A stretch of DNA of 64,000 nucleotides, from positions 832,001 to 896,000 of the forward strand of contig CP046106.1 in assembly GCA_013343275.1 (NCBI GenBank), read 5' to 3'. Position 1 is the stretch's first letter, and every line of letters begins with the position of its first letter. Source of the stretch: Candidatus Nanohaloarchaea archaeon. GTDB lineage: Archaea; Nanohalarchaeota; Nanosalinia; Nanosalinales; Nanosalinaceae. This document shows, one piece after another, positions 1,734-20,070 of the stretch. The notes under the pieces are model-generated. The model ran no database searches and was not told where the DNA came from. It saw nothing but the letters and a program-made list of their open reading frames with translations. The translations under genes and the position numbers were made by a program.

Positions 1734-2444
1734 ATGCTCTACCTGATCGGACTAGGACTTGACGACGGAGAAATAACGCAGAAAGGGATCGAGGCCCTGA
1801 AGAATGTAGATAAGGCCTACGCAGAGTTCTACACAAATACGGAGACTGTGGATCTGGAAGCACTGGAGGAACAGACAGGTACCGATATCGAGAAGCTTTC
1901 ACGTGAACAGGTAGAGCAGGAAGACATGATAACTGAATCAGCCCATGAAGAAGACACAGCCTTTCTGGTCTCAGGAAACGCTCTTACAGCAACGACACAT
2001 TACGAGATAAAGCATAGAGCGGAGAAAGAAGGCCTTGACGTAGAAGTTATACATGCGCCTTCAATCTTCACATCTATCTCGGAGACAGGACTTAACGTCT
2101 ACAATTTCGGCCGTACAGTAACGCTACCGCAGGATTTTGCACCGGAATCGATAGTTGAGCATATCGAAAAAAATGATTCAATCGGCCTACACACGCTTGT
2201 ACTTCTGGATATAAACTACGATGCTGCGGACGCCGCAGAAAAACTGATCGATCTTGATGAGGATCTAGAGGATAGAGAGGCCATGGTTCTCGAACGAGCC
2301 AATAACGAAGACCAGAATATTTCTCTTGCATCCCTCGGAGAACTATCCGAACATGATTTCGGAAGGCCTCCTCACTGTATAATTCTGGTAGGGGAGACCT
2401 CGCATATGGAAGAAGAATTTATAGAGGAATACAGTTTAGAATGA
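1734..2444 (+). CDS. dph5: diphthine synthase
   Basis: MLYLIGLGL, YAEFYT, ATTH, YNFGRTVTLP, GLHTLVLLDI, PPHCII. Confidence 0.93.
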   Translation: MLYLIGLGLDDGEITQKGIEALKNVDKAYAEFYTNTETVDLEALEEQTGTDIEKLSREQVEQEDMITESAHEEDTAFLVSGNALTATTHYEIKHRAEKEGLDVEVIHAPSIFTSISETGLNVYNFGRTVTLPQDFAPESIVEHIEKNDSIGLHTLVLLDINYDAADAAEKLIDLDEDLEDREAMVLERANNEDQNISLASLGELSEHDFGRPPHCIILVGETSHMEEEFIEEYSLE

Positions 2445-3269
2445 GGCCTCGAAGTACTGTGTTTCCCCGCCAGCAGACTGCTCCATAGTTATACTGCCTG
2501 ACGGTTCAAAACCTGATCCTGAGAAACTGAAGCTCTGAGTAACTGTTTCAGTACCCTGTTCGGCCTCGTAATCGAAGCTTGCGTCAGGATTCCAGCTATC
2601 GCTCATATCTACGCTTCCATCAGGCCCTGAATTATCTGGTTCATCGTATCCTGAATCTTCAGGCTCTGTGTAGTCCTCCTCTTCGGTTTCATCTGTATTT
2701 TCTTCTGTTCCATCTTCATTGAGTAGGTTTTCGTCTTCTGAGGTTCCGAAGAACTCGCTCTGCCAGCCCTGAGATTGATCCTGTTGCTGGCTCTGTCCAT
2801 AGTTATTATTGGTATTCTGGCCCTGGTTCTGATAGGAGGTATTCCAGAAACTGTTGTTCCAGCCTGTACCCCATCCAAAACCTTGTTGCTGCCCCGTAGG
2901 GCCTTGCTGCTGGTACATCCCCCAGCCTGACTGAGTCTGCCACGCTCCAGTATTCCAGGCTGGCTGGCCCCAGGAATTATTCTGTTCGTAGTTATTTTCG
3001 AGTATGTCTTCCAGGCGGCCGTTCTGTCTTTCCTGTCTTGACTGCATATCTTCTGCGAAAGCACCTACTCTTCTGTAATCTGTCTCCATCTGTTCAAGAA
3101 CTTCGTATAGCAGCTCTCTAGGCGCCTCTATTTCACTTTCTAGGTCGTCTATCAGTCCTTCCTCTCTGTCTATAGAGTCTCCTAACTCTCCCAGACTGTC
3201 AAACATATCATTGTTCGCTCTGCTAGCGCGTCGTGCCTGGTCCGAAAGATCGGAAGGATCTACACTCAT
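2436..3269 (-). CDS. hypothetical protein: helical N-domain, Q/N/G/W low-complexity region, acidic tail
   Basis: 277-aa acidic ORF; N-domain paralogous to the C-half of the upstream ORF. Confidence 0.75.
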   Translation of the reverse strand: MSVDPSDLSDQARRASRANNDMFDSLGELGDSIDREEGLIDDLESEIEAPRELLYEVLEQMETDYRRVGAFAEDMQSRQERQNGRLEDILENNYEQNNSWGQPAWNTGAWQTQSGWGMYQQQGPTGQQQGFGWGTGWNNSFWNTSYQNQGQNTNNNYGQSQQQDQSQGWQSEFFGTSEDENLLNEDGTEENTDETEEEDYTEPEDSGYDEPDNSGPDGSVDMSDSWNPDASFDYEAEQGTETVTQSFSFSGSGFEPSGSITMEQSAGGETQYFEASF

Positions 3270-3314: not shown

Positions 3315-4064
3315 TTATAGGTCGAGGTCGTATTCGTCTTCGAAGTCCTGACCTCTGCGCTCCATTGTTCCTAGTTCTCTTCTGACCTGGTCGTAATCTC
3401 CTTCATCTCTGAATTCTCTTGCGTCTTCAACTAGGTCTGTGAGACTGTCGTAATGTTCGTCGACAGTTGGCTGAAGCACCTGGTCTACGAATGCTGAAAC
3501 ACGATCGTAGTTGTCTTCTTGGACTTCTAGGGATTCGCTGATTACTTCGTTCTCAAGGTAACGGATTACGTCCTTTGTATCCTCAACGGTTACCTCAACT
3601 TCGTCTTCTCCATCTCCTAGTCGGTCTTCAAGATAGTTCTGGAAATCCTCTAGGTTGTCGAACATGTCGAACTCACTACCTCTTGCATCTCTGGTCTGTC
3701 GTCCAAGATCGTCAGGGTCGTTTGGTTCTCTTGCCATAATATTGTCACCTCCGTTATCTGGGTTTGGTTCAGGTTTTGAATCTGAAAGATCAGAGTTCTG
3801 GCCTTCGCTCGAAGGCTCAGAGTATGTTTCTGGATCGAGAAGCTCTCTTGCTTCATCTGAATGAGGTACTACTCTGTACTTCTCTCCACCATCTTCTCTC
3901 GTTACTCTCTCTACATCTACGTCGTCTCTCTGCCGATACTCGTTGAAATCGAACTCGTCACCGAGATCGGAGAGATTCACTGTTTCTATATCTTCTTCCA
4001 GGAGCTTGTCGACAGTCAACTTTACGCCGTCAAGCGGACCTGGAAATGGGTCAAATGCAGCCAT
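3315..4064 (-). CDS. hypothetical protein with probable second in-frame start at 3737
   Basis: GAGGT before ATG 4064; perfect GGAGGTGA before in-frame ATG 3737. Confidence 0.7.
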   Translation of the reverse strand: MAAFDPFPGPLDGVKLTVDKLLEEDIETVNLSDLGDEFDFNEYRQRDDVDVERVTREDGGEKYRVVPHSDEARELLDPETYSEPSSEGQNSDLSDSKPEPNPDNGGDNIMAREPNDPDDLGRQTRDARGSEFDMFDNLEDFQNYLEDRLGDGEDEVEVTVEDTKDVIRYLENEVISESLEVQEDNYDRVSAFVDQVLQPTVDEHYDSLTDLVEDAREFRDEGDYDQVRRELGTMERRGQDFEDEYDLDL

Positions 4065-4136: not shown

Positions 4137-4376
4137 ATGGCCGAAATGGACGAAACCCAGGAGAAGCTCAGACAGGAAACCGAGAAATGGCTGGAGAAGC
4201 TGGAAGACAGAGTCGAGGAAAGAGATTCTTCAGTCGAGCAGATGGAAAATGTGGAGGCCTACAGGGATGATACACGACACTTCCTGGAGGAAGATGACTA
4301 CATCAGGGCCTGGGAATCTGTTATCTATGCCTGGGGTATTCTGGAAACACTGGAACGTCTCGGAAAATTTGATTAA
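4137..4376 (+). CDS. DUF357-family protein
   Basis: AYRDDTRHFLEEDDYIRAWESVIYAWGILET pattern; start set at ATG 4137. Confidence 0.75.
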   Translation: MAEMDETQEKLRQETEKWLEKLEDRVEERDSSVEQMENVEAYRDDTRHFLEEDDYIRAWESVIYAWGILETLERLGKFD

Positions 4377-4408: not shown

Positions 4409-4723
4409 ATGAACATCAAAGACCCGTGGAAATACATCGCCTTCCCGGCCTCAGCAATATCATCTTTCTTCGCAGTAGATATACTGCTCGACGACTTCAC
4501 AAAGATCACGGGTCTAAGCCAGCTCAACGGCCAGATGGCGCTTCTTGCAGCTACAGGCCTCCTGATAGGTTTCCTTGTTGACGAAATGGTGCCGGCATAC
4601 ATCGAGAAAGTGAGAGAAGGATCCAGTTCCTCCGGTGGTGGAGGCGGCGACTTTGGCGGCGGTGATGGCGGTGACACTGACTTCGGCGGAGACGGCGGCG
4701 GTGGTGACGATTTCGACTTCTAG
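4409..4723 (+). CDS. small 2-TM membrane protein with Gly/Asp-rich tail
   Basis: two hydrophobic segments, GGDFGG tail. Confidence 0.7.
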   Translation: MNIKDPWKYIAFPASAISSFFAVDILLDDFTKITGLSQLNGQMALLAATGLLIGFLVDEMVPAYIEKVREGSSSSGGGGGDFGGGDGGDTDFGGDGGGGDDFDF

Positions 4724-5123
4724 AAAAATTCTATCACTGGTTTTTCTACTCGCTTTCTGCACCGGTGCTGTAGCCGGACAGGCCTACAATCTTCAGGACT
4801 ACCAGGGCGCCGACTACTTTTCAGCCCCGGAATATGATTCTCAGAGAGAGCTTGTTCTCAAGCTTATCTTTCCGTTCGTTCTCCTCTACGCAATGATGCA
4901 GTTCACACTGTACAACCTGATGAAGTTCACCATAAACTCGAACGACGACATGAAGGACTCGGAGATAGGGAGGTACTCGACACTACTGGCCGCTGCCATC
5001 CCTGCAATGCTGATAGTCACACCTATGTGGGAGAAGATAAACCTGGCCGTAGAAGCAATGGGGCCTGTACTGCTGGTAGCATTCGCATGCCTATTCATCT
5101 ACGTCATCTACAGAATGACGTAA
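4701..5123 (+). CDS. membrane protein (cluster paralog with IFPF TM motif)
   Basis: signal-like segment plus 3 TMs; start uncertain (GTG 4701/4704; track ORF begins 4635). Confidence 0.65.
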   Translation: MVTISTSRKILSLVFLLAFCTGAVAGQAYNLQDYQGADYFSAPEYDSQRELVLKLIFPFVLLYAMMQFTLYNLMKFTINSNDDMKDSEIGRYSTLLAAAIPAMLIVTPMWEKINLAVEAMGPVLLVAFACLFIYVIYRMT

Positions 5124-5166
5124 AACAGGCCTTAATGTATTAAAGAAGCTCAACTCAAATAACCCT

Positions 5167-7566
5167 ATGCGAAAAACCTATGCGGCAGCATTTCTGCTTG
5201 TCCTGATCGCAGCAATATCCGCGCCCGTCGCCGCACAGGGAATAACAGGGCCAACACAGTCATTCTACAACGCAGACCCGATAGGGTTCGTAGACTCGCT
5301 TACAGTCACCGATATCAACAACGGCCAGGACTTCCTTGTATTCGTAATACTACCGCTTATAGGAGTATACGGCCTGATGTGGTTCCTGTTCTCCAAAGTA
5401 CTGCAGGTAGCAGAAAACAACTTTGCCGACAACTCCAGCCCTACGGACGATGATCTATCAGAAATGGGGCAGAAAGCAGCAGTACTGATGGCCGCAGCAG
5501 TCGCCGTAGTAACAGTCATGCGGTTCGGCAACTTCTCACCTATAATGACACTCATACTATTCCTCCTCGCACTATACATGCTATACAAAAACGGCCTCGG
5601 CTTCATCGGAGCAGGAGGCGGCGGAGGACAAGGCCCACCGGGACCACAAGGTCCACAAGGAGATCAAGGACCGCAAGGCCCTCCTGGAGATTCACCTGAC
5701 CTGCCTGATGATCTAGTAACGGAAGATGATATACCGGACGATATTGGCGGTGGTGATGGCGGTGACGGAGGTGATGGTGGTTCTCCGGGCGGAGGCGGCA
5801 GCCCATATCAGAACATGGATCTGGATCTCTCTAACCTCGTGGATATCGATAATGATTCTGCGCAGGAGATGGCTGCTATGATGCGTCAGGCTCAGCAGCA
5901 GATGCAGCAACAGCAGCAGATGCAGATGACCCCGGGTGTGATGCAGATGATGGCTTTGTTCCAGGGCCGTATGGCTCCAGGTAATGGCGGTGTAGTTATT
6001 CAGCCTCCTAACGGGCCTAATGTAACTGTTCAGCAGCAGCAGATTAATCAGCTGATGCAGATGATGATGCAGGTTATGTCGGAGGGTGATGAGGACTTTG
6101 ATATGAATGTAGCGATGCAGATGATGCAGGTTGTCGTCAAGAATGGTGGTGACTTGGATGGAGATCTTATTCAGGTTCTGGAGCAGTACTTCCAGAAGGT
6201 TGAGAATAATCCAAAGATTGTACAGATCAACAACATGGAGATAGAGAAGGTTGTTAACCAGCAGTACTACGATATCAGTCAGGTGATGGTTCAGCAGTTC
6301 CAGCAGTTCTTCAGCCAGAAAAACGTTGACATCGATGTTCTAGCCTACCACCAGTTCATCAACTTGCTGGAGTTAAACGTTACCGCAAACAGCGGAGATA
6401 CAGTAATTATACATGCTGATGAAGGCGACGTGGAGATCGATGCCTCGGTCATAGTCCAGTTCATTTCAGTCGTAGAAAACTATCCCTCATCCCAGATAGG
6501 AGTCCTTATAGAGAAACTTGTCAATGTGTTTGCCGACATTGACGGCCCGCTAACACAGGAGATCCTGGTCAACATCACGAATATAATGATAAATATAGAG
6601 GAGGGCGGAGATCCGAGTGAGGTAGGGCCTGACGGTGCAGAAATAAAGATTGAGGAGCTTGAGCTAGTGACTGTTGACGGCCATCAACCGTTCCCAAGAG
6701 TAAAGAAGAATGGAGGCTATGTCCATGTGGTTCCTGCTGGAGCATCTACCGATCAGATAGGTATACATGCAATGGTCAGCTGCAACCGGAACGATGGCCT
6801 ACAGCAGATAACGTTCAACTTTGATGATAACCAGAGAGATCTAGGCCTTAACTCCAGCAGTTTCGGCCACGACGAAAGCGATGTAGTTCCTCTAAGTGAT
6901 ATAGCCGGAAGCCACCAGTTCCAGGAAGGCCAGATGCATAACTTCGGCATCAACGTAGTAGGCCAGATGGGCAACAACGAGAACACTGTCGCACAGCTAG
7001 AGGTATGGGCACCAGTAGATACACCGGAAGAAACTCCTGAAATCCCGGCTCTTGAGCCAGGCCCTGATGCGCCGCCTCTGCCTGAAGGAGAGGGTGTTTC
7101 TAAGCTGCCTGAGGATATAGAAAAAATAATAGATGATCTTGAAGGAGAGATAGATATTGAGAAGGATGTTGTGCAGGAGAAAAAGGACGCAGAGAACAAG
7201 CTAGCTGATGCATTGAGAGAGCTACTTGATAATCAGGATATTCTACATGCCCTAGTTTACTTCAGACAGGTTGATTTCGATGCTCCTCACGCCGACGTCC
7301 ATCAGCAGGTTGAGAAAATAATCTCTAATCTGGATGGTATAGATGAGGCCTCTCAGCTTCATTCCGAAATGAGGAATATTCAGCAGGTTTTCGGGAAAGT
7401 TGAGAATGCTTTAGATGAGCTACAAGATGCTTACGATAAGATGTCGGGCAGTGCAGGAGTACAGGCGCAGGATCAGGCAGATCTGGAAGAGATTTCAAAG
7501 TTAGTAGATAAACTGTCGGAAGGAAGAGAAGTACGTGAATATCTAAGTAAGCATTACAACGTGTAG
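5167..7566 (+). CDS. large multidomain membrane protein (collagen-like, Q/M-rich, C-terminal helical domain)
   Basis: signal peptide, 3 TMs, GPPGPQGPQGDQGPQGPPG, C-terminus homologous to the next ORF. Confidence 0.8.
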   Translation: MRKTYAAAFLLVLIAAISAPVAAQGITGPTQSFYNADPIGFVDSLTVTDINNGQDFLVFVILPLIGVYGLMWFLFSKVLQVAENNFADNSSPTDDDLSEMGQKAAVLMAAAVAVVTVMRFGNFSPIMTLILFLLALYMLYKNGLGFIGAGGGGGQGPPGPQGPQGDQGPQGPPGDSPDLPDDLVTEDDIPDDIGGGDGGDGGDGGSPGGGGSPYQNMDLDLSNLVDIDNDSAQEMAAMMRQAQQQMQQQQQMQMTPGVMQMMALFQGRMAPGNGGVVIQPPNGPNVTVQQQQINQLMQMMMQVMSEGDEDFDMNVAMQMMQVVVKNGGDLDGDLIQVLEQYFQKVENNPKIVQINNMEIEKVVNQQYYDISQVMVQQFQQFFSQKNVDIDVLAYHQFINLLELNVTANSGDTVIIHADEGDVEIDASVIVQFISVVENYPSSQIGVLIEKLVNVFADIDGPLTQEILVNITNIMINIEEGGDPSEVGPDGAEIKIEELELVTVDGHQPFPRVKKNGGYVHVVPAGASTDQIGIHAMVSCNRNDGLQQITFNFDDNQRDLGLNSSSFGHDESDVVPLSDIAGSHQFQEGQMHNFGINVVGQMGNNENTVAQLEVWAPVDTPEETPEIPALEPGPDAPPLPEGEGVSKLPEDIEKIIDDLEGEIDIEKDVVQEKKDAENKLADALRELLDNQDILHALVYFRQVDFDAPHADVHQQVEKIISNLDGIDEASQLHSEMRNIQQVFGKVENALDELQDAYDKMSGSAGVQAQDQADLEEISKLVDKLSEGREVREYLSKHYNV

Positions 7567-7620
7567 AAGCAGCCGGTTCAGGAATAACTAATAAAAACCT
7601 CTTTCTGTAGTAATTTACAC

Positions 7621-8142
7621 ATGGCAACAAACGTTGATGTCAATATCGACAACTTCATGAGCGATCTAAAGGATATTCTAAATGATCTAGAAAAAGAGGA
7701 GCAAATTGAGCAGCAGATAATTGAAGAGCAGAAAGATGCAGAAGAGAAGCTTGCTGAAGCTCTAAGAGATCTAACTGGGAGAGATGAGAAAGGTCAGTGG
7801 TCAGAAGGAGCCCAAGGTGCACTTCAGGCATTAATCCAGTTTAGAGATGTGAACTTTGATGCGCCTCATGCAGAAGTCCACCAGCAGGTAGAGCAGATCA
7901 TCAAGAACTCTAAAGGCATTAATGATGCTGCAAAGCTCCAGAGCCACTTGCAGGACTTCCATCATGGAATTGGAAATATTGAGAGAGCTCTAGAAGAGCT
8001 GCAGGATGTCTATCAGAGGACTTCTGAAGATGCTGAACATCAGAAAGCTGATGTTAAGGAGCTCAGAGAAATCCAGCAGGTTGTTGGCAAGCTTCAGCAG
8101 GGGGCACAGAGATACTCCAAGTGGGCACAGGGAGAACGATAG
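7621..8142 (+). CDS. soluble helical protein, free-standing copy of the C-terminal domain of 5167..7566
   Basis: FDAPHAEVHQQVE vs FDAPHADVHQQVE, KDAEEKLAEALR vs KDAENKLADALR. Confidence 0.8.
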   Translation: MATNVDVNIDNFMSDLKDILNDLEKEEQIEQQIIEEQKDAEEKLAEALRDLTGRDEKGQWSEGAQGALQALIQFRDVNFDAPHAEVHQQVEQIIKNSKGINDAAKLQSHLQDFHHGIGNIERALEELQDVYQRTSEDAEHQKADVKELREIQQVVGKLQQGAQRYSKWAQGER

Positions 8143-8193
8143 TTTCTCTCCTACCCCCTTAACTTCTTAATATTCTAAACTTAGTTGCTTATT

Positions 8194-9651
8194 ATGCCAA
8201 GCAAGAAAAGTATCTTGTTTTCGACAGTATTTCTTTCCCTAATACCTTTATCAGCTGCTCAATCGGGCAACCAGTTCTTCACACTTTTCAGTGGTTATGT
8301 CGGTATGCCTGTAACTAATGGCCAGCAGTTCATAATGTATGTTCTTGCGCCCTTCCTGTTTGTATTTGCTATCTCCCGATTTATAGCAAAAGGCGCCTTA
8401 ATGAATGCAATGGAAAGCTCCGGGCTTGGCGGAGAAGTAGGTAAGCGAGCACCTACATTGATCGGCGTTGCGACAGCAGGCATAATGATGATACTGTTTG
8501 GCGGCGTACTGCTATGGCTGATTGTAATATTTGCAATTCTCGGAGCAGGATGGTTCCTACTCGGAAGTACAAAATATGCTGCAGATAGCACAGGTGTGAC
8601 TGGAGGCCTCAAGAAAGGAGCATCCGCGGTCAGCGATAGAATGGGCTCAGGGTCTTCTAGCAGCGGAGATTCTAGTGGTGTAACAGCTGAGAAGGTAAGT
8701 GATATGCTAGATGATAGAATAGATCAGCTGAAGAGTGAGTTATCGTCTATTGATGATGAGGAGCAGGATGAGAAACAGAAGGAAGATCAGACAGAGCAGG
8801 AGGAAGAAGAAGGTCAGAATCCTGATCAGGTAGAGGACGAAATAGAATCTGAAGAGGCCGAGTTGATGGATATAGTTAAGAAACTGGAGACGGTTGAAGA
8901 ACAGTTGAACGGTCTCGAGAGCGATATAGACTCCATAGAAGAACTGGAGCTTGATGAAGTCCAGAGGGATATGAGTAAGCTAAATGATGTGGAGAGTGTT
9001 GAGCAACAGGTAAATGAAGATCTACAGGACATGATTCAGAGAGCAAAGGCTGGTAGAGTAGATGAAGAAGTTCTGGAAGAGTTCGCATCTAATATGGCTG
9101 AGTGGGAGGATTATCTGCGAGAGCTGAGGCATGATATGGCGCATGAACATAATATCCATCAATCTGTCGATAAAATTCTAGAGGACCTGCGCGAGATGAG
9201 AGATGTTCTTGACTTTGCTGAAAGCGATATCCACAAGGCGGAAACGCTCGTCAATGAACTTGAAGATGAGGAGCAGAAGGCTGAAGCTCTGTCTCAGAAA
9301 TATGGCGCTCGTGAAATCTTTGAAGAAATTGAGCAGGATGAGTCTGAGACTTCAGACATAGAGTCGGAAATAAGAAATAAAGTAGTAGAAAGATACCAGG
9401 AACTTCAGCAAGGGATTGAAGATGAGATAGAAAGAGCTGAGGAATTGAAGGAGTATGATGAGCAGGAGTTCGATGAGATTCTGGATATAGTTCAGGGATT
9501 GGATCAAGAAGAAGGTGCTCTAAGCAATTTAAGGAATAGGTTTAGTAATGGCCCTCACGAAGAGTATGAACAGGAGCTGGAAGATATTATTGAGCATATA
9601 GAGGAGATAGAAAGTATGGCCCGGCAGTTAAGCTCGGAGCATCAGGCCTAG
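8194..9651 (+). CDS. membrane-anchored long coiled-coil protein
   Basis: signal peptide, 3 TMs (LAPF motif), about 300 aa acidic heptad region. Confidence 0.8.
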   Translation: MPSKKSILFSTVFLSLIPLSAAQSGNQFFTLFSGYVGMPVTNGQQFIMYVLAPFLFVFAISRFIAKGALMNAMESSGLGGEVGKRAPTLIGVATAGIMMILFGGVLLWLIVIFAILGAGWFLLGSTKYAADSTGVTGGLKKGASAVSDRMGSGSSSSGDSSGVTAEKVSDMLDDRIDQLKSELSSIDDEEQDEKQKEDQTEQEEEEGQNPDQVEDEIESEEAELMDIVKKLETVEEQLNGLESDIDSIEELELDEVQRDMSKLNDVESVEQQVNEDLQDMIQRAKAGRVDEEVLEEFASNMAEWEDYLRELRHDMAHEHNIHQSVDKILEDLREMRDVLDFAESDIHKAETLVNELEDEEQKAEALSQKYGAREIFEEIEQDESETSDIESEIRNKVVERYQELQQGIEDEIERAEELKEYDEQEFDEILDIVQGLDQEEGALSNLRNRFSNGPHEEYEQELEDIIEHIEEIESMARQLSSEHQA

Positions 9652-9710
9652 AGTAGGTTTAGATATTTAAGTAAGGCTTAATAACACAATGCTAAGAGGT
9701 TTCAAAATAC

Positions 9711-9851
9711 ATGGCTCTGACAGTGGAAGCAATAATGAATAACCTGATGGCCTATCCAGAGGTAGCAGCGGTAGGCTTTGTAGCAGGTTTCCTTGCAAGA
9801 TGGTACATGGGTAAAAGAAATAACGGCGGCGCTGGAGGCGGCTGGGGTTAA
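9711..9851 (+). CDS. 46-aa single-TM protein (not in ORF track)
   Basis: GAGGT SD; MALTVEAIMNNLMAYPEVAAVGFVAGFLARWYMGKRNNGGAGGGWG; stop 4 nt before the next ATG. Confidence 0.65.
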   Translation: MALTVEAIMNNLMAYPEVAAVGFVAGFLARWYMGKRNNGGAGGGWG

Positions 9852-9855
9852 CACC

Positions 9856-10116
9856 ATGAAACGAGATACTAAATTCCACGAGTTTGTATACGAGATAGAA
9901 AACATTCTAGATGAACTCCTGATTGCGTTCCTATCGTTTGGAGCCATAGTAGTGTCGGTATGGACTCTTCAGAGAACTCAGGGTCTTACCATGAGTTCTT
10001 TCGGCGATATTATACAGCCGTGGATCGTAATGCTAGGCCTTATGATCATCGGGAGAGAGCTATGGATGATGAACCGCAACCTTGAAGAGTACTTGAGAAG
10101 AGAAGAAGGTGAATGA
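9856..10116 (+). CDS. small 2-TM membrane protein
   Basis: MKRDTKFHEF start; two TMs; ATGA overlap with the next gene. Confidence 0.7.
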   Translation: MKRDTKFHEFVYEIENILDELLIAFLSFGAIVVSVWTLQRTQGLTMSSFGDIIQPWIVMLGLMIIGRELWMMNRNLEEYLRREEGE

Positions 10117-10685
10117 GCAAAGTGGCTACAGGATTCGCCGCTCTAATCACTACTCTTGAAGGAGTAGATTTCTTCACACTCCTACTTCCTTTCCTAGTAA
10201 CCTATGTAGTACTTCTGTTCGGAGTACGTCAGATAGGCCATCTGGAAGATTCAAATGTTCCTCCGGTGGTAGCACTGGCAGGAGCATTCTTCCTGGCCTT
10301 CTTCCTCGCCAACAATCCAGGTTATCAGTCATTCTTCACACAGTACTGGGCCCGGATAGCAATAGGAATGATGGGAGTACTAGGCCTAGGAGCAATCCTC
10401 GGCCTTGCAGGATGGGGCAATGTATTGAGCGATTCCAAGCCGCTGGGAATGCTTGTGCTGATAGCAGGCTTCGCAGTATTCGCAAGAACCGGCGGTTTAG
10501 AGGCTATTATCCCTCTACCAGATACTACGGTCCAGCAGATGGTAAACACTGTGCTTAGCTCTCCACTTATCTGGCTTGTCCCGCTCGGATTTGTGATGTA
10601 CTGGACCTCACCATCATCAGGAGACGATGATGACGGAAGTTCACTGGAGGATAAACTGGACTTCGTCCTAGGCAGCGGTGATTGA
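10113..10685 (+). CDS. polytopic membrane protein (LLPF TM motif)
   Basis: about 5 TMs; paralog of the next gene. Confidence 0.75.
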   Translation: MSKVATGFAALITTLEGVDFFTLLLPFLVTYVVLLFGVRQIGHLEDSNVPPVVALAGAFFLAFFLANNPGYQSFFTQYWARIAIGMMGVLGLGAILGLAGWGNVLSDSKPLGMLVLIAGFAVFARTGGLEAIIPLPDTTVQQMVNTVLSSPLIWLVPLGFVMYWTSPSSGDDDDGSSLEDKLDFVLGSGD

Positions 10686-10687
10686 TC

Positions 10688-11185
10688 ATGGGAGCAATTG
10701 AGCAGGTAATATTGACCATGGAAGAAATGGGCTTCAACGTATTCCTTCCATGGCTCCTAATATTCTCAGTCACATACGGCCTGCTTAACAAGTACGAACC
10801 TATCAGCGAAGAAACCCAGGTTAACGGCGTCATATCCCTGGCCTTCGCTTTCCTGTCCGTTATCGGTGTCACTAGTTTCGCCCCCGCAGGGATGTGGACA
10901 CATTTTGCCTCGGCTATAGCCTTCGGTATCTTCGGAATGCTTTCACTAATGATTCTTTTCGCAGTAGCAGGATATGATCTGGATGATATGGGAGAGGCCT
11001 GGTCGCTTCCATGGATATTTGCCGGAGTAATAGGAGTAGTTGCATTTGTGAGCGTGATAGTTGGATATGGAGGAGGAACTGCCCGTCTCATCGGCCAGGG
11101 CAACCTGTTTGATCAGGTAGTGATGCCTATACTCTCGCTGGTATTCGTGATAATAATAGTTCTGTTCACAACTCAAGACTTCTGA
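10688..11185 (+). CDS. polytopic membrane protein (FLPW TM motif)
   Basis: about 5 TMs; N-terminal half aligns with 10113..10685. Confidence 0.75.
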   Translation: MGAIEQVILTMEEMGFNVFLPWLLIFSVTYGLLNKYEPISEETQVNGVISLAFAFLSVIGVTSFAPAGMWTHFASAIAFGIFGMLSLMILFAVAGYDLDDMGEAWSLPWIFAGVIGVVAFVSVIVGYGGGTARLIGQGNLFDQVVMPILSLVFVIIIVLFTTQDF

Positions 11186-11246: not shown

Positions 11247-12173
11247 CTACCAGTCCTCGATATCCATGTCGTCCATTTCCTGCTGTGAGACGTTTGTATC
11301 TGTCTCTATTCCTTTCTCCTGCTTGATTTCTTGAACTAGACTGGTCAGATCCCTTACATTGTCAACTAGGGAAGGTAGTACCTGCTGGAAAGCCTTCTCC
11401 AAGCCTCCTATCCTTGATTCATAGGAGTCAATATGGTCCTCCATCTCGTCTACTTTCTGCACGAACTGCTGCTGATCTTCATCGTCGCGGACTTCGAGCT
11501 CTTCAACTCTGTCCTCAAGTTCGTCTACTTTATCGGCAAGAATATCTATCTCATCAAAGACATCGTCGAAACGCTGCTCAACCCTCTGGAAGTTCTCGGA
11601 TACAATAGTTTCAATAAGCTCTTCAACCTCAGGGTCAACCGTGCCCTGTGAAGGATTAGCCATTTGCTGGCCTCCTCCCTGCTGAGGCTGTTGAACCTGC
11701 TGATTTTGATTATTGTTATTCTGGTTCTGATTGAATCCCTGATTTTGTTGAAAGTCTTGCTGCTGTTGCTGTCCATTGTTCTGATTCATCTGTTGATCTC
11801 CCTCTGAGTTACCATCGAAACCTTCATCCATAGGACTCACTGCCTCCTCCCCGTTATTATCTTGGTATGGGGTCATGGGCTCAGGACCTCCTTGATTACC
11901 GTTATTGCCAGTAGCTGAGCTCTTCACTGCGCTGTTGATCGCTCTCTCAATTTCCGTCTGTGAAAACTGGCCCTGTAACTCTTCTTTAATTTCCTCCTCG
12001 GAGTAACCCTGGTTGAACATATCTTCAACACGCCGCTCAACACCGTTACCTCCGAAGGAAGAGCCTTGTTGATTATTGCTGGAGCCGCCAAAATCTCCGA
12101 ATCCGCCGCTGCCTGAGTTAGAATCTCCTTGATCGCCATCGTCCTTTAATCTATCAAACAACTTGAATTCCAT
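11247..12173 (-). CDS. coiled-coil protein with Q/N-rich linker
   Basis: heptad region ending RIGGLEKAFQQVLPSLVDNVRDL. Confidence 0.75.
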   Translation of the reverse strand: MEFKLFDRLKDDGDQGDSNSGSGGFGDFGGSSNNQQGSSFGGNGVERRVEDMFNQGYSEEEIKEELQGQFSQTEIERAINSAVKSSATGNNGNQGGPEPMTPYQDNNGEEAVSPMDEGFDGNSEGDQQMNQNNGQQQQQDFQQNQGFNQNQNNNNQNQQVQQPQQGGGQQMANPSQGTVDPEVEELIETIVSENFQRVEQRFDDVFDEIDILADKVDELEDRVEELEVRDDEDQQQFVQKVDEMEDHIDSYESRIGGLEKAFQQVLPSLVDNVRDLTSLVQEIKQEKGIETDTNVSQQEMDDMDIEDW

Positions 12174-12217: not shown

Positions 12218-12649
12218 TTAATCCTTTTGTCTAAGCTTTTTCTCGACTATCCGCTCTACCTCTTCCTTACTCAGACCTCCATTACTGTTATTCTCATCTA
12301 TCAGCTTCTTTACCTCTTTCTTAGTCATGAAAGAAGAGTTGATGGGGTTCATCAAGTCCATGTAGTTCTCGATCTCCTCTATCTCCTGAGAAGTAACAAA
12401 CTTCCTCTTCTCCCGGTTAATCTCCTTAATGTCAACCTCCAGATTCGCGATTCTATCTCTTATCTCGCTCATATCGTCATTAATATCCTGTATATCATCG
12501 CTGAGAGACTTAGTCTTCTTCAAGAGGCTGTCATCGAGAGTGTTGACTCTCGCATTGATGTTCCTTACCTTTTCCTCCAGATCCCGGATCCTCCGGTTGA
12601 AGTCGTTTACCCTATCTACTAACTGATTTACAAGGTCTTGCTGAGGCAT
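12218..12649 (-). CDS. coiled-coil protein, divergent from the pilus ATPase
   Basis: continuous heptads; 31-nt gap to the ATPase start. Confidence 0.75.
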   Translation of the reverse strand: MPQQDLVNQLVDRVNDFNRRIRDLEEKVRNINARVNTLDDSLLKKTKSLSDDIQDINDDMSEIRDRIANLEVDIKEINREKRKFVTSQEIEEIENYMDLMNPINSSFMTKKEVKKLIDENNSNGGLSKEEVERIVEKKLRQKD

Positions 12650-12680: not shown

Positions 12681-14942
12681 ATGCTGGGTATGAGTGTAAC
12701 AGATAAAGACGTTTTCGAGTACGACTACGATGAAGAATCAGGAACGGTAGAGGTAAACACTCTAGGATCAGTCTATGGGGCAAGCCTCGAGGACTACCCG
12801 CAGGTTATGTCTCGAGTCATAAATATCCTGCAGGAAGTTCCTGATGCATCATCCGTAGTTCTATCCGAATCAAGAGACTATGAATACGATGAACAGCAGG
12901 TACAGTACCTCAAAGAGATAGCACAGGTAATACAGGACCTATCATCACAGGGCTACCTGTCTCAGGATGTCAAAACAGATAAATGCGACAATATTTACAG
13001 TCAGCATCTTCCCGACGTTCAGGAAAGCGTCTTCGACAAGATGCGTAAAGATCCGATAGGTGCATATGTACAGCTCACCAGAAAAAAGCGCCACCTTAAC
13101 CAGGATAGAGAGAACGCATATCCTGAAGAACAGCGCTGTCTCAAATACTTTATACAGGATGTACTCAACCCTGTAATCGACAGGATCGAGGAATGCCAGT
13201 TAATCCAGCAGGCCCAGCAATACCTTACAGGCCACCACGTAGGAGACAGAGAGATATACAGGGAGTTCTTCCATCCACTGGTCAGGCCTAACTTCATGCT
13301 TACAAAGTACATGAGCCTTCCTCCTGAGAGAGGAGAGGAGGTAGACCGCTATGAGGTAAGAGACGGCATCGAAGTATCGATTTACAGGGTACCAGACCAG
13401 ACAAGGCCTGTATATCACGTTAACCCGCCGGAGTTCAATCTTTCTGAGCAGAAATACACTCTGCTTGACGCAGCAAGGAGATACATGGCTTCCCACCAGC
13501 CGGAGGAGGGAGAGTTTGCAAGGCCTGAAAGAATGAATGAAGTGTTTGAAAACATCGGTAAAGATATGCTCAGGGATATTTCCAACCAGATGGGTATGGA
13601 CCTCTCACTGGAGGAGATAGAAGAGCTCGGATCCATACTCAACAGATACACCTCAGGCCTCGGCGTACTCGAGCTGCTTCTCGCAGACCCAAAGATCCAG
13701 GACGTCTACATTAACTCTCCTATCGGCGATTCTCCGATGTACATCTCTCATCAGGACTACGAGGAGTGCGAAACCAATCTCATTCCGACGAAGGACGAGG
13801 CTGAGTCGTGGGCCACCCGCTTCAGGATCCGTTCAGGAAGACCTCTTGACGAGGCAAACCCGGTACTGGATACAGAGGCCGAGGTTCCTGGAGGCCGGGC
13901 TCGTGTAGCTGTTATACAGGAAAATCTCTCACCGGAAGGCCTGGCGTTCGCATTCCGTAGACACCGTTCACAGGCCTGGACTCTCCCACTTTTCGTTGAC
14001 AACAACATGATAAACTCGCTGGGAGCGGCCCTGATATCCTTCCTTGTCGATGGTAATCGTTCAGTTCTATTTGCAGGCACCCGTGGTGCAGGTAAATCCT
14101 CCCTGCTAGGAGCCTCTATGCTTGAAATTATGAAAAGCCACAGGATAGTAACGGTAGAGGACACGCTTGAGTTGCCGATTCCGCAGATGAAGGACTTAGG
14201 GTACAATGTGGAGCGTATGAAATCCAGATCTGCGATTACTCAGGTCGAGAACGAAATGGCAGCTGATGAGGCCATCCGTACATCGCTCAGGCTTGGTGAC
14301 TCCGCTCTAGTTGTAGGAGAGGTTCGTTCCGACGAGGCAAAGGCCCTGTATGAGGCTATGCGTGTCGGAGCTGTTGCTAACTTCGTTGGAGGTACTATCC
14401 ACGGTGAGAGCGCTTACTCTGTTTTCGACCGTGTTGTAAACGATCTTGGTGTCCCTCGAACGTCTTTCAAGGCTACAGATATTATTGTCAGCGTGAATAA
14501 GATCCGTAGTCCTGATGGTATGGAGACTTACCGCCGTGTAACTGGTATTACGGAGGTTAGGAAGGACTGGCAGGATGATCCTCGGGAGGAGAATGCTTTC
14601 GTTGACCTTATGCGTTACGACAGCAATAAGGATGAGCTTGTGCCTACAGATGAGCTTATGAACGGCGAATCCCTTATCCTGAACCGTATTGCAGAGAACA
14701 TCAAGGAATGGAAGAACGACTGGGAGGCCGTCTGGGATAATATCAAGCTCAGGCAGAAGATAAAGGAGAGGCTGATCGAGGCCGATAAAGAGTCCGATAA
14801 AGATCTTCTCGAGGCCGATTTCGTGGTCAAGGCCAATCAGAGATACCATATTCTGTCGCAGAGAGTGAGGGAGGAGTACGGTTCTCTGGATAACGACAGG
14901 ATCTACGCAAGATGGAATGAATGGCTGGAACAGCAGGTGTAA
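12681..14942 (+). CDS. type II/IV secretion (CpaF/TadA/FlaI-like) ATPase
   Basis: Walker A GTRGAGKS, Asp box VTVEDTLEL, Walker B VVGEVR, GTIHG. Confidence 0.93.
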   Translation: MLGMSVTDKDVFEYDYDEESGTVEVNTLGSVYGASLEDYPQVMSRVINILQEVPDASSVVLSESRDYEYDEQQVQYLKEIAQVIQDLSSQGYLSQDVKTDKCDNIYSQHLPDVQESVFDKMRKDPIGAYVQLTRKKRHLNQDRENAYPEEQRCLKYFIQDVLNPVIDRIEECQLIQQAQQYLTGHHVGDREIYREFFHPLVRPNFMLTKYMSLPPERGEEVDRYEVRDGIEVSIYRVPDQTRPVYHVNPPEFNLSEQKYTLLDAARRYMASHQPEEGEFARPERMNEVFENIGKDMLRDISNQMGMDLSLEEIEELGSILNRYTSGLGVLELLLADPKIQDVYINSPIGDSPMYISHQDYEECETNLIPTKDEAESWATRFRIRSGRPLDEANPVLDTEAEVPGGRARVAVIQENLSPEGLAFAFRRHRSQAWTLPLFVDNNMINSLGAALISFLVDGNRSVLFAGTRGAGKSSLLGASMLEIMKSHRIVTVEDTLELPIPQMKDLGYNVERMKSRSAITQVENEMAADEAIRTSLRLGDSALVVGEVRSDEAKALYEAMRVGAVANFVGGTIHGESAYSVFDRVVNDLGVPRTSFKATDIIVSVNKIRSPDGMETYRRVTGITEVRKDWQDDPREENAFVDLMRYDSNKDELVPTDELMNGESLILNRIAENIKEWKNDWEAVWDNIKLRQKIKERLIEADKESDKDLLEADFVVKANQRYHILSQRVREEYGSLDNDRIYARWNEWLEQQV

Positions 14943-14945
14943 AGA

Positions 14946-17120
14946 TTGGATAAACAGGAGAAACAGGACAAGATAAACGATATACTGGAAGACCTGGACA
15001 GAGATGTCAGTATGCCTCCCTACGATAACCAGGATGGAGGCCAGGGTTACTCCCGTTCCTACAAGGAGTACAAGGAGGAAGAGGAGAGCTCAAGGGAGCG
15101 CAACAGCTACGAGAAGCTCTGCTACGAGATGGCCAACGTCTTCAATATGAAGGCTGGGGAGAAGACTCATGAGAAGCTTACACCTCCGATCAATCTTCTT
15201 GGATGGGATATAACTCCCGGAATGGTTATGTCGGCCACTGTCGGCGTCTTTGTTCTCTCATTTATGTCCTGGATGAGCCTGTTCCTGGTGAATACACTGC
15301 TCCTCGGCAATCTTATTCCTGTCTCGATCATGATGATAATTCTCTCAGCGCCGATAATGGCCTCGGTATACACCTACTACAAGCCGAAATATGCTGCGCA
15401 GTCAAAATTAATCGAGAGCAGCGGAGAAATGATACTGGCCATACTCTACATGGTAGTATACATGAGAAGCTCTCCAAACCTGGAGGGAGCAGTCAGGTTC
15501 GCAGCTCTCAACCTAGAAGGCCCTATTTCCGACGACCTGAAAGGAGTACTCTGGGACCTGGAGATCGGAAAGTACAACAAGATAGATGAGGCCCTCGAAA
15601 ACTATACTCGCAGATGGAAGGATTACAATGATGACTTCCTGGAGTCGCTGAATCTTCTTCGTTCTGCTATGAATCAGCCGGATCCTGATCGGCGGGAGTC
15701 TATGCTTCAGGACTCAATCGACAATATCCTGGATGGAACACAGGAGAAGATGAAACACTATGCACAGAATCTGGAGACTCCTGTCATGATCCTGAACGCA
15801 ATGGGCGCTATGCTACCGGTGCTCGGCATGATAATGCTCCCGCTTATCTCTGTATTCATGGGAGATGCCATCACACCTATGCACCTTTTCCTACTGTTCA
15901 ATGTTTTACTACCTACGTTTCTCTACTGGTTCATGAAAAGAGTGCTCAGCTCCAGACCGCCAACAGTCGCTACAAATCCTGTAGACGACTCTATACTCCC
16001 TGACAGAGGCAAATATACGTTAAATCTTCTGGGTAGAGACTTCAGAATACCTGTCTGGCCTGTAGGAGTAATACTTTTCTTCTTTTTCGGCCTATACGGC
16101 ATAGTCGGATACCTTTCCACAGCAAGCGCTGGCCAGGGCTTCTTCCTGCTCTACCCTGCCGCTACCAATATAGATCCTTCACTAGTGCCTTCTATATATC
16201 TACAACCTGATGGCTCTCTTGCACCTCTACCAATGCTTATGAGAAGCGTGTCGATAGTGTTCGGCCTTGGAGTAGGTATAGGCTCTGTAAAAGTACTTGG
16301 CAATATCGAACGGAAAAAAGCAGAGGAGAGACTATCAAAAATAGAGGAACAGTTCCCTAACGCACTCTTCGAACTAGGAAACAAGATATCAGGAGGAACG
16401 CCTGTAGAGATCGCACTGGAAGACGCCGCAGAAGCAACATCTGAACTCGAAATATCCAATCTATTCGGAAAGGCCTCGGAAAACGTCAAAGACATGGGAA
16501 TGACATTCGAACAGGCCGTAATGGATGATCAGTATGGCGCGCTGAGGCAGTTCCCTAGCCAGATGATCAGAACAGTAATGCAGGCCATCATACAGTCCTC
16601 AAAGAAAGGGACCAATATGGCCTCTACAGCAATGCTTACAATATCAAAATACCTTAAGAACATACACAAGACACAGGAGCAACTTAACGATCTGATGGAG
16701 GATACTACAACAACTATTCAGATGCTGGCCTACCTGCTCGCGCCGGTAGTATCGGGAGTGGCGGTGGGAATGTCACAGACCATCATAACGGCCATGTCCA
16801 CTCTTTCAAAATCGGTGAAACAGTCGCAGGTTGGCAATCAGCCAGGAACAGCTTCGGGCCTTGGAGGAGTTATATCCGGTTTTGAATCTGCGATACCGCC
16901 AGAACTTCTTCAGTTCGTGGTAGGACTCTACCTGATTCAGTTGCTTTTCATACTGGGAAGCTTCTTCACCAAGATCAAGAAGGGAGAGGACCCGACCTAC
17001 AAGAACCTGTTTATAGGCAAAATAATGATCTCAGGCATGTTCTTCTACGCCATGACCTTGATAATAGTAGGAATGCTATTCGGAGGCATGGTAGGATCAG
17101 TAACACAGGTGGCAGCATAG
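14946..17120 (+). CDS. type IV pilus membrane platform protein (two GspF/TadB-C-like domains)
   Basis: multiple TMs; EEQFPNALFELGNKISGGTPVE; directly follows the ATPase. Confidence 0.85.
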   Translation: MDKQEKQDKINDILEDLDRDVSMPPYDNQDGGQGYSRSYKEYKEEEESSRERNSYEKLCYEMANVFNMKAGEKTHEKLTPPINLLGWDITPGMVMSATVGVFVLSFMSWMSLFLVNTLLLGNLIPVSIMMIILSAPIMASVYTYYKPKYAAQSKLIESSGEMILAILYMVVYMRSSPNLEGAVRFAALNLEGPISDDLKGVLWDLEIGKYNKIDEALENYTRRWKDYNDDFLESLNLLRSAMNQPDPDRRESMLQDSIDNILDGTQEKMKHYAQNLETPVMILNAMGAMLPVLGMIMLPLISVFMGDAITPMHLFLLFNVLLPTFLYWFMKRVLSSRPPTVATNPVDDSILPDRGKYTLNLLGRDFRIPVWPVGVILFFFFGLYGIVGYLSTASAGQGFFLLYPAATNIDPSLVPSIYLQPDGSLAPLPMLMRSVSIVFGLGVGIGSVKVLGNIERKKAEERLSKIEEQFPNALFELGNKISGGTPVEIALEDAAEATSELEISNLFGKASENVKDMGMTFEQAVMDDQYGALRQFPSQMIRTVMQAIIQSSKKGTNMASTAMLTISKYLKNIHKTQEQLNDLMEDTTTTIQMLAYLLAPVVSGVAVGMSQTIITAMSTLSKSVKQSQVGNQPGTASGLGGVISGFESAIPPELLQFVVGLYLIQLLFILGSFFTKIKKGEDPTYKNLFIGKIMISGMFFYAMTLIIVGMLFGGMVGSVTQVAA

Positions 17121-17283: not shown

Positions 17284-17502
17284 ATGAAGCTAACATCCAA
17301 AATCCTCACAAACAGAAAAGCAATGGGCTGGAGCATGAGAGTAATAATGGCTCTATTCCTGGCAATAGCATTTGGAGCACTGATAATGCCATACCTTCTA
17401 CCGGCAATATTCGGCGCAGAATCAACAACCAGCTGTCAGGCGCCATACATGCAGGCGATAGCCAGCGTAGTCTCCGACGCAACAGGTAGCTCGCCATGCT
17501 GA
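17284..17502 (+). CDS. pilin-like protein
   Basis: RKA|MGWSMRVIMALFLAI class III signal. Confidence 0.7.
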   Translation: MKLTSKILTNRKAMGWSMRVIMALFLAIAFGALIMPYLLPAIFGAESTTSCQAPYMQAIASVVSDATGSSPC

Positions 17503-18995: not shown

Positions 18996-18998
18996 AAA

Positions 18999-19139
18999 AT
19001 GGAAGTATCTATCAAAACCGTGGCCATGCTTGTACTGGCTATAATGATTGTTTCGCTGATATTCATGGGTTTCTCAGGGTGGTTCAATAATATGGCAGGT
19101 AACTTCGCTGGAAACGTAACTTACCCGACCACTCCTTAG
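18999..19139 (+). CDS. 46-aa pilin-like protein without basic leader (not in ORF track)
   Basis: MEVSIKTVAMLVLAIMIVSLIF; AGGAGG upstream. Confidence 0.6.
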   Translation: MEVSIKTVAMLVLAIMIVSLIFMGFSGWFNNMAGNFAGNVTYPTTP

Positions 19140-19172
19140 CTTATTTTAACAGGGCCTGCAAAATACTCTACT

Positions 19173-19373
19173 GTGAACTCTCGGAAAGGTTTCGATATAT
19201 CGCTGACCATTATCATTGCTTTCCTGATAGTAATAGTTCTAGTCGCTACTCTGGGAGCTATCACAAACAGTTACACGGGTAAATTTCTGAATTTCGGTAA
19301 TAATGCTACTAATACCTCCCTGGTTAAATCTGTAGGACTTATAGGGGGTGCCCTGCTTGAACGTAGCAACTAA
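19173..19373 (+). CDS. pilin-like protein
   Basis: RKG|FDISLTIIIAFLIV. Confidence 0.7.
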   Translation: MNSRKGFDISLTIIIAFLIVIVLVATLGAITNSYTGKFLNFGNNATNTSLVKSVGLIGGALLERSN

Positions 19374-20068: not shown

Positions 20069-20070
20069 TA

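Follow-up and report, generated by a model that had tools for sequence, protein, structure and literature searches.

Background

DPANN archaea (named for the Diapherotrites, Parvarchaeota, Aenigmarchaeota, Nanoarchaeota and Nanohaloarchaeota) need physical contact with their hosts, and the parts of the machinery that makes this contact are largely unknown. Machines that build filaments of the type IV kind have accessory subcomplexes, among them PilM/N/O and GspL/M in bacteria and FlaX and FlaC/D/E in the archaellum, and accessory proteins of the PilM/N/O, GspL/M and FlaX type cross the membrane once. The subject of this paper is a run of nine genes (g1 to g9, positions 4409 to 11185; Table 1) which, with two coiled-coil genes next to it, adjoins a pilus-type ATPase and its platform gene in a 64,000-nucleotide (nt) stretch of the genome of a Candidatus Nanohaloarchaea archaeon (GenBank assembly GCA_013343275.1, contig CP046106.1, positions 832,001 to 896,000 of the forward strand). 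We refer to this whole stretch as the window and count positions from its first letter.

The closest described relatives of the locus appear in the main text of Hamm et al. (2024, Nature Communications, PMC11291902), which describes, throughout cluster-2 DPANN, two conserved type IV pilus-like loci that encode CpaF, TadC and coiled-coil proteins, records the detection of several locus proteins in a proteome, and mentions 'nucleopore domains' for the coiled-coil proteins. The present locus resembles them in its CpaF-type ATPase, its TadC platform and its coiled-coil proteins, and the lineages named there (Nanohaloarchaeota, Woese-, Pace-, Nano- and Aenigmarchaeota) are the ones in which we find the membrane protein family described below. 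Membrane proteins go unmentioned in that main text, where the word 'transmembrane' occurs zero times, although the supplementary neighbour table may list them as hypothetical. The same text likens the coiled-coil proteins to an attachment fibre, whereas the coiled-coil tails of g3 and g5 are predicted here to lie inside the cell.

Unnamed membrane proteins in archaeal type IV filament loci are noted in the texts of Makarova, Koonin and Albers (2016, PMC4858521) and of a 2026 census (PMC13705601). The text of the census describes type IV filament systems as scarce in DPANN, whereas the ATPase of the present locus occurs in 61 of 70 genomes of its own phylum and in 59 of 61 genomes of another DPANN class. 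Among the systems treated in these two papers, archaeal type IV filament 'system 2' (clade 2) is a close counterpart, to which the ATPase studied here may belong. A five-helix membrane family such as that of g8 and g9 is not described in the text of either paper, nor was it found in literature searches on the membrane family. A conserved pilus locus with coiled-coil proteins has already been published, and the accessory membrane set is probably its undescribed part. New here are g1, g2, g6 and g7 as members at the level of the taxonomic family, the link between the membrane module of g2, g3 and g5 and the five-helix family, and an argument from topology.

A five-helix membrane family beside the filament ATPase

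We propose, with about an even chance of being right, that the nine genes and the two coiled-coil genes form a lineage-specific accessory module of a type-IV-filament-like machine that is found across DPANN. The evidence begins with g8 and g9, whose five-helix family stays beside this ATPase in both of the DPANN phyla compared. When 1.84 billion cluster representatives were searched with a profile built from 26 g8/g9 sequences, 2,224 matched at E<=1e-3, 701 at E<=1e-10 and 35 at E<=1e-30. The 150 best listed matches are 110-226 amino acids (aa) long, and the listed members bear the organism names Nanohaloarchaea, Aenigmarchaeota, Pacearchaeota, Woesearchaeota, Nanoarchaeota or plain 'archaeon', with Candidatus Nanohaloarchaea as the source name on close homologues of g8. 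Pfam domains are present in none of the 119 listed family proteins, and a protein atlas holds clusters from Nanobdellota and Aenigmatarchaeota that are also without Pfam families. No longer, fused forms of the family came up on search, which is weak evidence. Near-invariant residues across the family are Phe, Pro and Gly only, none of them charged or catalytic; in the g8/g9 alignment (A1) they are F21, P26 and G100, with the motif F-x4-P in helix 1. Both g8 and g9 have the traits by which the family is defined, namely a length of about 160-210 aa, five helices and this motif.

Within the phylum of the window the g8/g9 profile matches 60 of 70 genomes, including 27 of the 28 of high quality. 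Array and ATPase occur together in 59 genomes and are both missing from eight; one genome has the array only and two have the ATPase only, and these three discordant cases involve contig ends or fragments. The array is no more than 8 kilobases (kb) from the ATPase in all 12 phylum loci compared. A DPANN class belonging to another phylum was reached through one distant family member and sampled in 61 genomes, every one of which carries the family, in tandem arrays of two to four copies. In both groups the copies are in tandem wherever more than one is listed. The ATPase orthologues in this class share 46-56% identity with the window's protein, which places it among the most conserved proteins seen between the two phyla. 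By hand tally, array and ATPase are at most 8 kb apart, mostly 1-3 kb, in at least 37 of the 59 genomes that have both, with one further weak case, and in 19 they fall on different contigs of draft assemblies; a separate check of the linkage with Pfam T2SSE found it in seven of ten genomes. Because the flanking genes differ between loci, the linkage goes beyond general genome synteny. A preliminary description of the window had suggested synteny with CpaF-like ATPases as a check on its reading, and that check was borne out in this phylum and in the second class alike.

The loci of the other class share more than the array. In six of eight (L029-L032, L034, L035) the platform and ATPase genes stand side by side with a coiled-coil gene or two and the array, prepilin-like genes coming before this group and further membrane proteins after it, and the same six contain a blastp-detectable orthologue of the window's 308-aa coiled-coil protein, which was found in neither L036 nor L037. 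Two of the further membrane proteins match the first-helix region of the family at 91-94%. The g7 profile has two weak matches in the 61 genomes, both inside or beside arrays. A predicted two-helix protein of some 190-205 aa with a shared N-terminal motif stands directly upstream of the array in three loci (L032:11562-12122, L035:6434-7057 and L036:7356-7967), in the position of g2; its matches to the g2, g3/g5 and five-helix profiles are not significant (2-31%).

Conservation within the phylum

Regions of 20 kb around the g8 orthologue were taken from 12 genomes of the phylum, ten of the same family as the window and two of other families, and compared by tblastn. In the ten same-family loci g1, g7, g8 and g9 were each matched ten times and g2 nine times, in the same order, and all ten follow one plan: g1, g2, a set of variable anchored coiled-coil genes, g6, g7, g8 and g9, then the two coiled-coil genes, the ATPase and the platform. 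Of the genes in the middle of the window's cluster, g3 was matched in the same-genus locus only (54% identity over residues 1-485), g5 in one of the 12 loci and g4 in none of the 12. At least one protein made of a signal peptide, three helices and a long tail is nevertheless found mid-locus in every same-family genome, accompanied by up to two soluble partners. Because this anchored type of protein is always present and its sequences differ, the middle of the locus is a constant slot with fast-changing contents.

Matches to the 46-aa g6, which the preliminary description had proposed as a gene missing from its list of open reading frames (ORFs), were obtained by tblastn in four of the ten same-family loci; all ten have, at the corresponding position, an ORF of 36-53 aa that carries the same motif, and the gene is real. 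The g7 profile matches 45 of 70 phylum genomes, made up of 44 of the 49 of its own family and the window's genome, and none of 20 in other families; in the cases compared it sits directly upstream of the g8 orthologue. Both coiled-coil genes are present in all 12 loci. The two loci from other families of the order retain the ATPase and both coiled-coil genes together with two or three copies of the g8/g9 kind; just upstream lies a protein with eight helices, whose matches to the g2 profile reach 92% and 77%. We infer that g1, g6 and g7 are small additions limited to the window's own family.

Comparison with a same-genus genome gave ratios of non-synonymous to synonymous substitution (dN/dS) of 0.04-0.12 for g1, g2, g7, g8 and g9, 0.31 for g6 and 0.02 for the ATPase, all of them rough, as dS (about 1.2-1.9 for these genes, 0.73 for g6) is near saturation. 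Identity between g3 and its same-genus orthologue is 50% over 692 aligned codons, with a dN of 0.45. Conservation in relatives and low dN/dS mark these as coding genes, real and under purifying selection.

Kinship among the nine proteins

The preliminary description had taken the membrane proteins for paralogues, five of them sharing a proline in the first core helix. The strings that it quoted are all present in the translations (LIFPFVLLY in g2, VILPLIGVY in g3, VLAPFLFVF in g5, LLLPFLVTY in g8 and VFLPWLLIF in g9), and so is its NGQ(D/Q)F motif, as NNGQDF in g3 and TNGQQF in g5. Genome-wide, 20 of 1,041 predicted membrane segments contain the pattern [LIVFMA]3-P-[FWL]-[LIVFMA]2, and in the genome-wide ORF set its P-[FW] form is confined to g2, g5, g8 and one 47-aa ORF; g9 fits the pattern too, but a longer antisense ORF displaced it from that set, and the string of g3 lies outside the pattern.

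By blastp, residues 650-786 of g3 and 15-161 of g4 share 45.6% identity (E 8e-29), and weak links, obtained in a tiny database, join the N-terminal parts of g3 and g5 (E 7.9e-6), g2 and g3 (E 0.002), and g8 and g9 (E 0.012). Profile-profile tests with hhalign, built on alignments of orthologues from 10-13 genomes and paired with reversed-profile controls that all stayed at or below 1.5%, joined g8 to g9 (97.9%, E 3e-13, 160 columns), g2 to g8 (79.7%, E 1.5e-5, 80 columns) and g2 to the g3/g5 module (72.5%, E 3e-5, 151 columns); the value for g2 with g9 was 1.4%, and g3/g5 had no direct link to g8 (1.3%) or g9 (0.1%). Against a 174-sequence profile of the g8/g9 family, g2 reached 86.2% over 44 columns spanning the proline-bearing helix (reversed control 2.5%) and g3/g5 reached 5.3%, in a set in which reversed profiles gave at most 2.5% and reversed single sequences one value of 26.3% and otherwise at most 2.0%. 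A kinship of g1 with g6 was not accepted, as hhalign gave 34.8% over 12 columns only.

These comparisons argue firmly that g8 and g9 are tandem paralogues and that g4 is a free copy of the C-terminal domain of g3, and moderately that g2 is related both to the g3/g5 module and to the g8/g9 family. The proposed paralogy therefore holds in part, within these groupings, and fails for g3 and g5 when they are compared directly with g8 and g9.

Predicted topology

Five helices are predicted in 161 of the 174 family members. In these 161 the density of Lys and Arg is 0.149, 0.108 and 0.111 in loops 1, 3 and 5 and 0.026, 0.022 and 0.021 in loops 0, 2 and 4, a charge bias from which the g8/g9 family is predicted to have its N-terminus outside and its C-terminus inside the cell. 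In the g2 and g3/g5 families most sequences have 0-1 Lys or Arg after the signal peptide (with two exceptions in g2) and 2-10 in the loop after the first core helix (with one exception in g2), with almost always 0-1 in the loop that joins the next two helices. Since a loop rich in Lys and Arg follows the first core helix and a segment poor in them precedes it, the long tails of g3 and g5 would be cytoplasmic. For g6 the prediction is again an outer N-terminus and an inner C-terminus; g7 is predicted to be a hairpin with both ends inside, and g1 is probably another. Signal peptides are absent from g4 and from both coiled-coil proteins. Nearly all the non-membrane mass of the cluster is predicted to lie inside the cell, and only short N-terminal segments and loops would face outward.

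Searches for known families and folds

None of g1-g9 matched a Pfam family at cut-off, and no NCBIfam match rose above cut-off for the six proteins submitted (g1, g2, g5, g7, g8 and g9), in agreement with the preliminary description, which had recognised no function in any of them; g5 yielded only sub-threshold coiled-coil matches in NCBIfam. PHROGs, searched with all nine, likewise yielded nothing above cut-off; its one hit, between the Gly-rich stretch in g3 and a family of tail fibres, we read as compositional. The five-helix family profile found no sequence relative in the PDB, the best match being an MscS channel at E 0.15. An AlphaFold2 model of g8 built on the family alignment is all-helical, with a predicted local distance difference test score (pLDDT) of 77 and a predicted template modelling score (pTM) of 0.47; Foldseek found no PDB match to it at E<=0.001, and a wide fold search with VIA gave a top Z of 6.8, to helical hairpins, Z values of 6-7 being the tool's stated noise level for helical models. 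The AlphaFold2 model of g2 (pLDDT 68) has four helices and likewise no Foldseek match at E<=0.001.

Several identities were considered and rejected. A transporter or channel was dropped, as no curated transporter family in Pfam or NCBIfam was matched above cut-off; mapping to known transporters was an outcome that the preliminary description had itself raised. The names 'TehA-like permease' and 'MdoB-like', attached to single five-helix members in their source records, are mutually inconsistent and were ignored. DUF2070 (PF09843), a family predicted to consist of archaeal membrane proteins, is matched weakly by g9 and by four of ten distant five-helix members at profile positions of about 27-176 of 561; every match is under the 30-bit cut-off, the best at 20 bits and E 2.4e-4, and kinship was not accepted on sub-threshold matches only. 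DUF2070 proteins are about three times as long as five-helix members and themselves of unknown function, so that kinship would throw no light on the family. A prepilin peptidase (A24) or presenilin-type protease was set aside for want of a conserved Asp pair and of a GxGD motif: Asp is absent from the invariant and near-invariant columns of alignments A1 and A3, and the one invariant Asp of alignment A4 lies outside the predicted helices. Type IV pilins were rejected on topology, as the first core helix is predicted to run from out to in, after a Sec-type signal (g2, g3, g5) or none (g8, g9). A mobile element or phage was dropped in view of the gene order kept across the family and the phylum and of purifying selection.

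Layout of the cluster

Number, orientation, close spacing and placing of the nine ORFs are as the preliminary description had them, and so is the count of eight membrane proteins, hydropathy finding membrane segments in all except g4. Starts were refined by comparison with orthologues, that of g2 remaining uncertain between a GTG at 4635 and 4701. Neighbouring genes are separated by -23 to +59 nt, the stop of g7 overlapping the start of g8 by 4 nt. Gly-rich tails are found in g1, g3 and g6 and long helical tails in g3 and g5; that of g3 runs from a Gly/Pro/Gln-rich stretch through a Q-rich stretch to a C-terminal helical domain. Invariant positions include D5, W7, K8, D58, E59, P62 and Y64 in g1, P58 and F59 in the first core helix of g2, and the motifs ENxxDE, LSxG, PW and MIIxRELW in g7.

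Table 1. Genes of the cluster and of the adjoining pilus-type locus, in window positions
Feature	Position	Strand	Description
g1	4409-4723	+	104 aa; two hydrophobic segments; Gly/Asp-rich tail with DFDF end
g2	4701-5123	+	about 140 aa; Sec-type signal peptide, then three membrane helices
g3	5167-7566	+	799 aa; signal peptide, three membrane helices, long tail
g4	7621-8142	+	173 aa; soluble helical protein
g5	8194-9651	+	485 aa; signal peptide, three membrane helices, acidic coiled-coil tail of about 300 aa
g6	9711-9851	+	46 aa; single-pass; basic stretch; Gly-rich tail with aromatic last residue
g7	9856-10116	+	86 aa; two-helix hairpin
g8	10113-10685	+	190 aa; five-helix membrane protein
g9	10688-11185	+	165 aa; five-helix membrane protein, tandem paralogue of g8
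308-aa coiled-coil protein	11247-12173	-	Gly/Gln/Asn-rich N-terminus; conserved neighbour
143-aa coiled-coil protein	12218-12649	-	conserved neighbour
Secretion/pilus ATPase, CpaF/FlaI/GspE type	12681-14942	+	753 aa; long N-terminal extension
TadC/FlaJ/PilC-type platform protein	14946-17120	+	724 aa; single gene; Pfam T2SSF
Prepilin-like gene run	17284-22738	+	at least 7 genes; [KR]G then hydrophobic helix at N-termini

At a distance of 27-33 nt, TATA-like A/T-rich hexamers precede the start codons of g1 (TTTAAA, from 4381), g3 (ATTAAA, from 5139), g5 (TTAATA, from 8167) and g6 (TTAATA, from 9678), and ATAAAAA lies about 30 nt ahead of g4; inspection of the sequences upstream of g2, g7, g8 and g9 revealed no such hexamer. 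Read as archaeal promoters, the hexamers suggest about five leaderless transcription units rather than a single operon.

A small DUF357 gene (4140-4376, plus strand; Pfam E 2.6e-12) ends 33 nt upstream of g1. It adjoins g1, at 35-42 nt, in four of the ten same-family loci and is located elsewhere in the other six, and in one locus of the other class (L030) it directly follows the five-helix array. Gly-rich stretches with Phe or Trp recur at the locus, in the tails of g1 (4616-4720; GGDFGGG...DDFDF) and g6 (9810-9848; GGGWG, most orthologues ending in GGF) and at the N-terminus of the 308-aa coiled-coil protein (12030-12173, minus strand; GGFGDFGG...SSFGGNG). The minus strand also encodes, at 20-625, 2436-3269 and 3315-4064, three highly acidic proteins. 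Two of the three are rich in Gln, Asn and Gly, and no Pfam family is present in the two that were scanned.

The adjoining pilus-type locus

The ATPase matches Pfam T2SSE (E 2e-15, 56.8 bits against a cut-off of 24.9) and, far under that family's cut-off, NCBIfam FlaI (E 5e-41); its nearest solved structures are archaeal GspE (2oap, E 9e-24) and then CpaF and FlaI. The genome encodes four T2SSE-type ATPases, and this one has the lowest Pfam score. The platform protein matches Pfam T2SSF in two stretches (30.8 bits against a cut-off of 25.2). The N-termini of the prepilin-like run, such as RKG|ALE, RKG|FDI, RRG|FTE, RKG|ISG and DKG|LAE, resemble class III signal peptides when read by eye and may be such; no Pfam match was obtained in the run. 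One weak match to Peptidase_A24 was obtained in the genome, at G000:C1:206239-206655, with a score of 14.5 bits (cut-off 26.5) and an E-value of 0.023.

Two more pilus-type loci lie in the same genome, at G000:C1:478069-480569 and 617520-620032; their ATPases are shorter (570 and 503 aa), and each locus has its T2SSF platform divided between two genes. Orthologues of the window's ATPase were matched in two pieces in 11 genomes of the phylum and five of the other class, with the break at query residue 491-496 and within one open frame of 1,125-2,013 aa (for example G002:C41:7924-11673 and G073:C4:526545-530270); the pattern suggests an insertion of the intein type, always at the one site, and the window's own copy is without it. 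A 990-aa frame on the minus strand of L028 (6356-9328) may hold another intein: its two ends, judged by eye, resemble a V-type ATPase B subunit and are separated by a long insertion.

Discussion

The machine to which the cluster would belong consists, as we picture it, of a long CpaF/FlaI-type ATPase, a single TadC/FlaJ platform and several prepilin-like proteins. The membrane part of the accessory module would be made of the five-helix paralogues, the three-helix modules of g2, g3 and g5, and the small proteins g1, g6 and g7, with the paralogues and the three-helix modules set around the platform in the cytoplasmic membrane as a collar or stator. Long coiled-coil tails would be anchored on the cytoplasmic side by g3 and g5, and these tails, together with g4 and the two coiled-coil proteins, would form a scaffold that positions or regulates the ATPase; g3-g5 would be the part of the module that changes fast. 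PilM/N/O, GspL/M, FlaX and FlaC/D/E offer a likeness in this proposed working only, namely anchored cytoplasmic coiled coils and small membrane proteins around a platform, holding an ATPase; unlike them, g8 and g9 have five helices, and the Pfam, NCBIfam and fold searches found no similarity in sequence or fold.

Several observations weigh against an accessory module. No resemblance of g1-g9 to known pilus or archaellum accessory proteins (PilM/N/O, GspL/M, TadZ, FlaF/G/H/X, FlaC/D/E) was found in Pfam for all nine, in NCBIfam for six, in the PDB profile search or in the fold searches of g8 and g2, although absence of a match is still compatible with distant kinship. Nor can the eight genomes of the phylum that lack both array and ATPase count as independent evidence, since neighbouring genes go missing together where an assembly has gaps. 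The profiles of g1, g6 and g7 found no match on the fetched loci of the other class. The module of g3 and g5 would be kin to g8 and g9 only by transitivity, through g2, and false positives arise easily when membrane helices are compared by profile. In two of the 40 other-class genomes with array and ATPase on the same contig the two are 52 and 78 kb apart (L036 and L037), so the array can exist away from the motor, and two other genomes of that class, each at least 85% complete, have arrays with no ATPase match. A family so universal and present in so many copies could, finally, serve a general membrane role.

Such a role is the substance of the alternative that survives best, which we consider possible if somewhat unlikely: an independent DPANN membrane complex, for the handling of host-derived lipids, the anchoring of an S-layer or the organising of the membrane, that stands beside the pilus genes through shared regulation or ancestry. 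The near-universal and multi-copy occurrence of the family (61 of 61 and 60 of 70 genomes), the restriction of its near-invariant residues to Phe, Pro and Gly, the two cases of wide separation and the L036 array, which stands without an ATPase, all favour it. It fits less well with an array that keeps within 8 kb of the ATPase in at least 37 of 59 other-class genomes and in all 12 phylum loci under differing flanks, with the prepilin-like genes that lie about 7 kb downstream even in L036, and with the lack of similarity to transporter or lipid-handling families in Pfam, NCBIfam and PDB profile searches.

The preliminary description had raised, for a hetero-oligomeric channel or scaffold, a possible role in host attachment or protein transfer, and it is on this point that the predicted topology departs from it. 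An outward-facing channel or host-contact complex that served, jointly with the ATPase and the pilus genes, for host attachment or for the passage of proteins or cytoplasm would suit the names of close homologues, which mark the locus as that of a host-dependent archaeon, and the fast evolution of g3-g5, whose rate is close to that of the neighbouring prepilin-like protein of 499 aa (same-genus identities of 54% and 57%, compared with 94% for the ATPase). In another DPANN archaeon, cryo-tomography is reported to have revealed a 21-nm barrel-like envelope structure whose genes are unknown, and the coiled-coil proteins of the locus are likened to a viral attachment fibre in the text of Hamm et al. 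(PMC11291902). Against this stands the charge bias, which would leave the tails of g1, g3, g5 and g6 in the cytoplasm and almost nothing but membrane helices elsewhere, and a soluble g4 and two coiled-coil proteins with no signal for export; no pore-like or adhesin-like fold or domain emerged from Pfam or from the fold searches of g8 and g2, and Hamm et al. (PMC11291902) report in their text that the loci also occur in a DPANN species not seen entering its host. We regard such a complex as decidedly unlikely and, because the charge bias puts the tails in the cytoplasm, read the cluster as an accessory module rather than a host-contact adhesin.

A bolder form of the accessory module may be entertained, and we hold it very doubtful: a membrane ring of five-helix paralogues and g2/g3/g5 modules, with a cytoplasmic basket of coiled coils, would convert the pilus-type motor into a DPANN-specific machine that builds or docks a conduit drawing material from the host. 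That conduit could be the barrel-like envelope structure, or the intercellular nanotube, reported by cryo-tomography in another DPANN archaeon, and if this were true the genes for the barrel or nanotube structure would be in hand. That the searches missed a known transporter, peptidase or pilin family to which the proteins simply belong, or that some are not genes, is highly improbable: the sub-threshold matches of four of ten distant members to the DUF2070 N-terminus and a presenilin-type protease placed second in the wide fold search (Z 6.3) speak for it, but all matches fall under curated cut-offs or within the noise for helical models, no conserved aspartate pair or GxGD is present, the first core helix is predicted to run opposite to that of a type IV pilin, and conservation and dN/dS mark coding genes.

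Conclusions

If the nine genes and their two coiled-coil neighbours do form an accessory module, an accessory subcomplex that is part membrane and part cytoplasmic has gone undescribed in an archaeal type IV filament system. With most of their mass predicted to face the cytoplasm, the proteins of the cluster make poor candidates for adhesins that bind the host. The five-helix family would, on the same condition, serve as a genomic marker for the machine, and the proposal would be testable in cultivated nanohaloarchaeal co-cultures.

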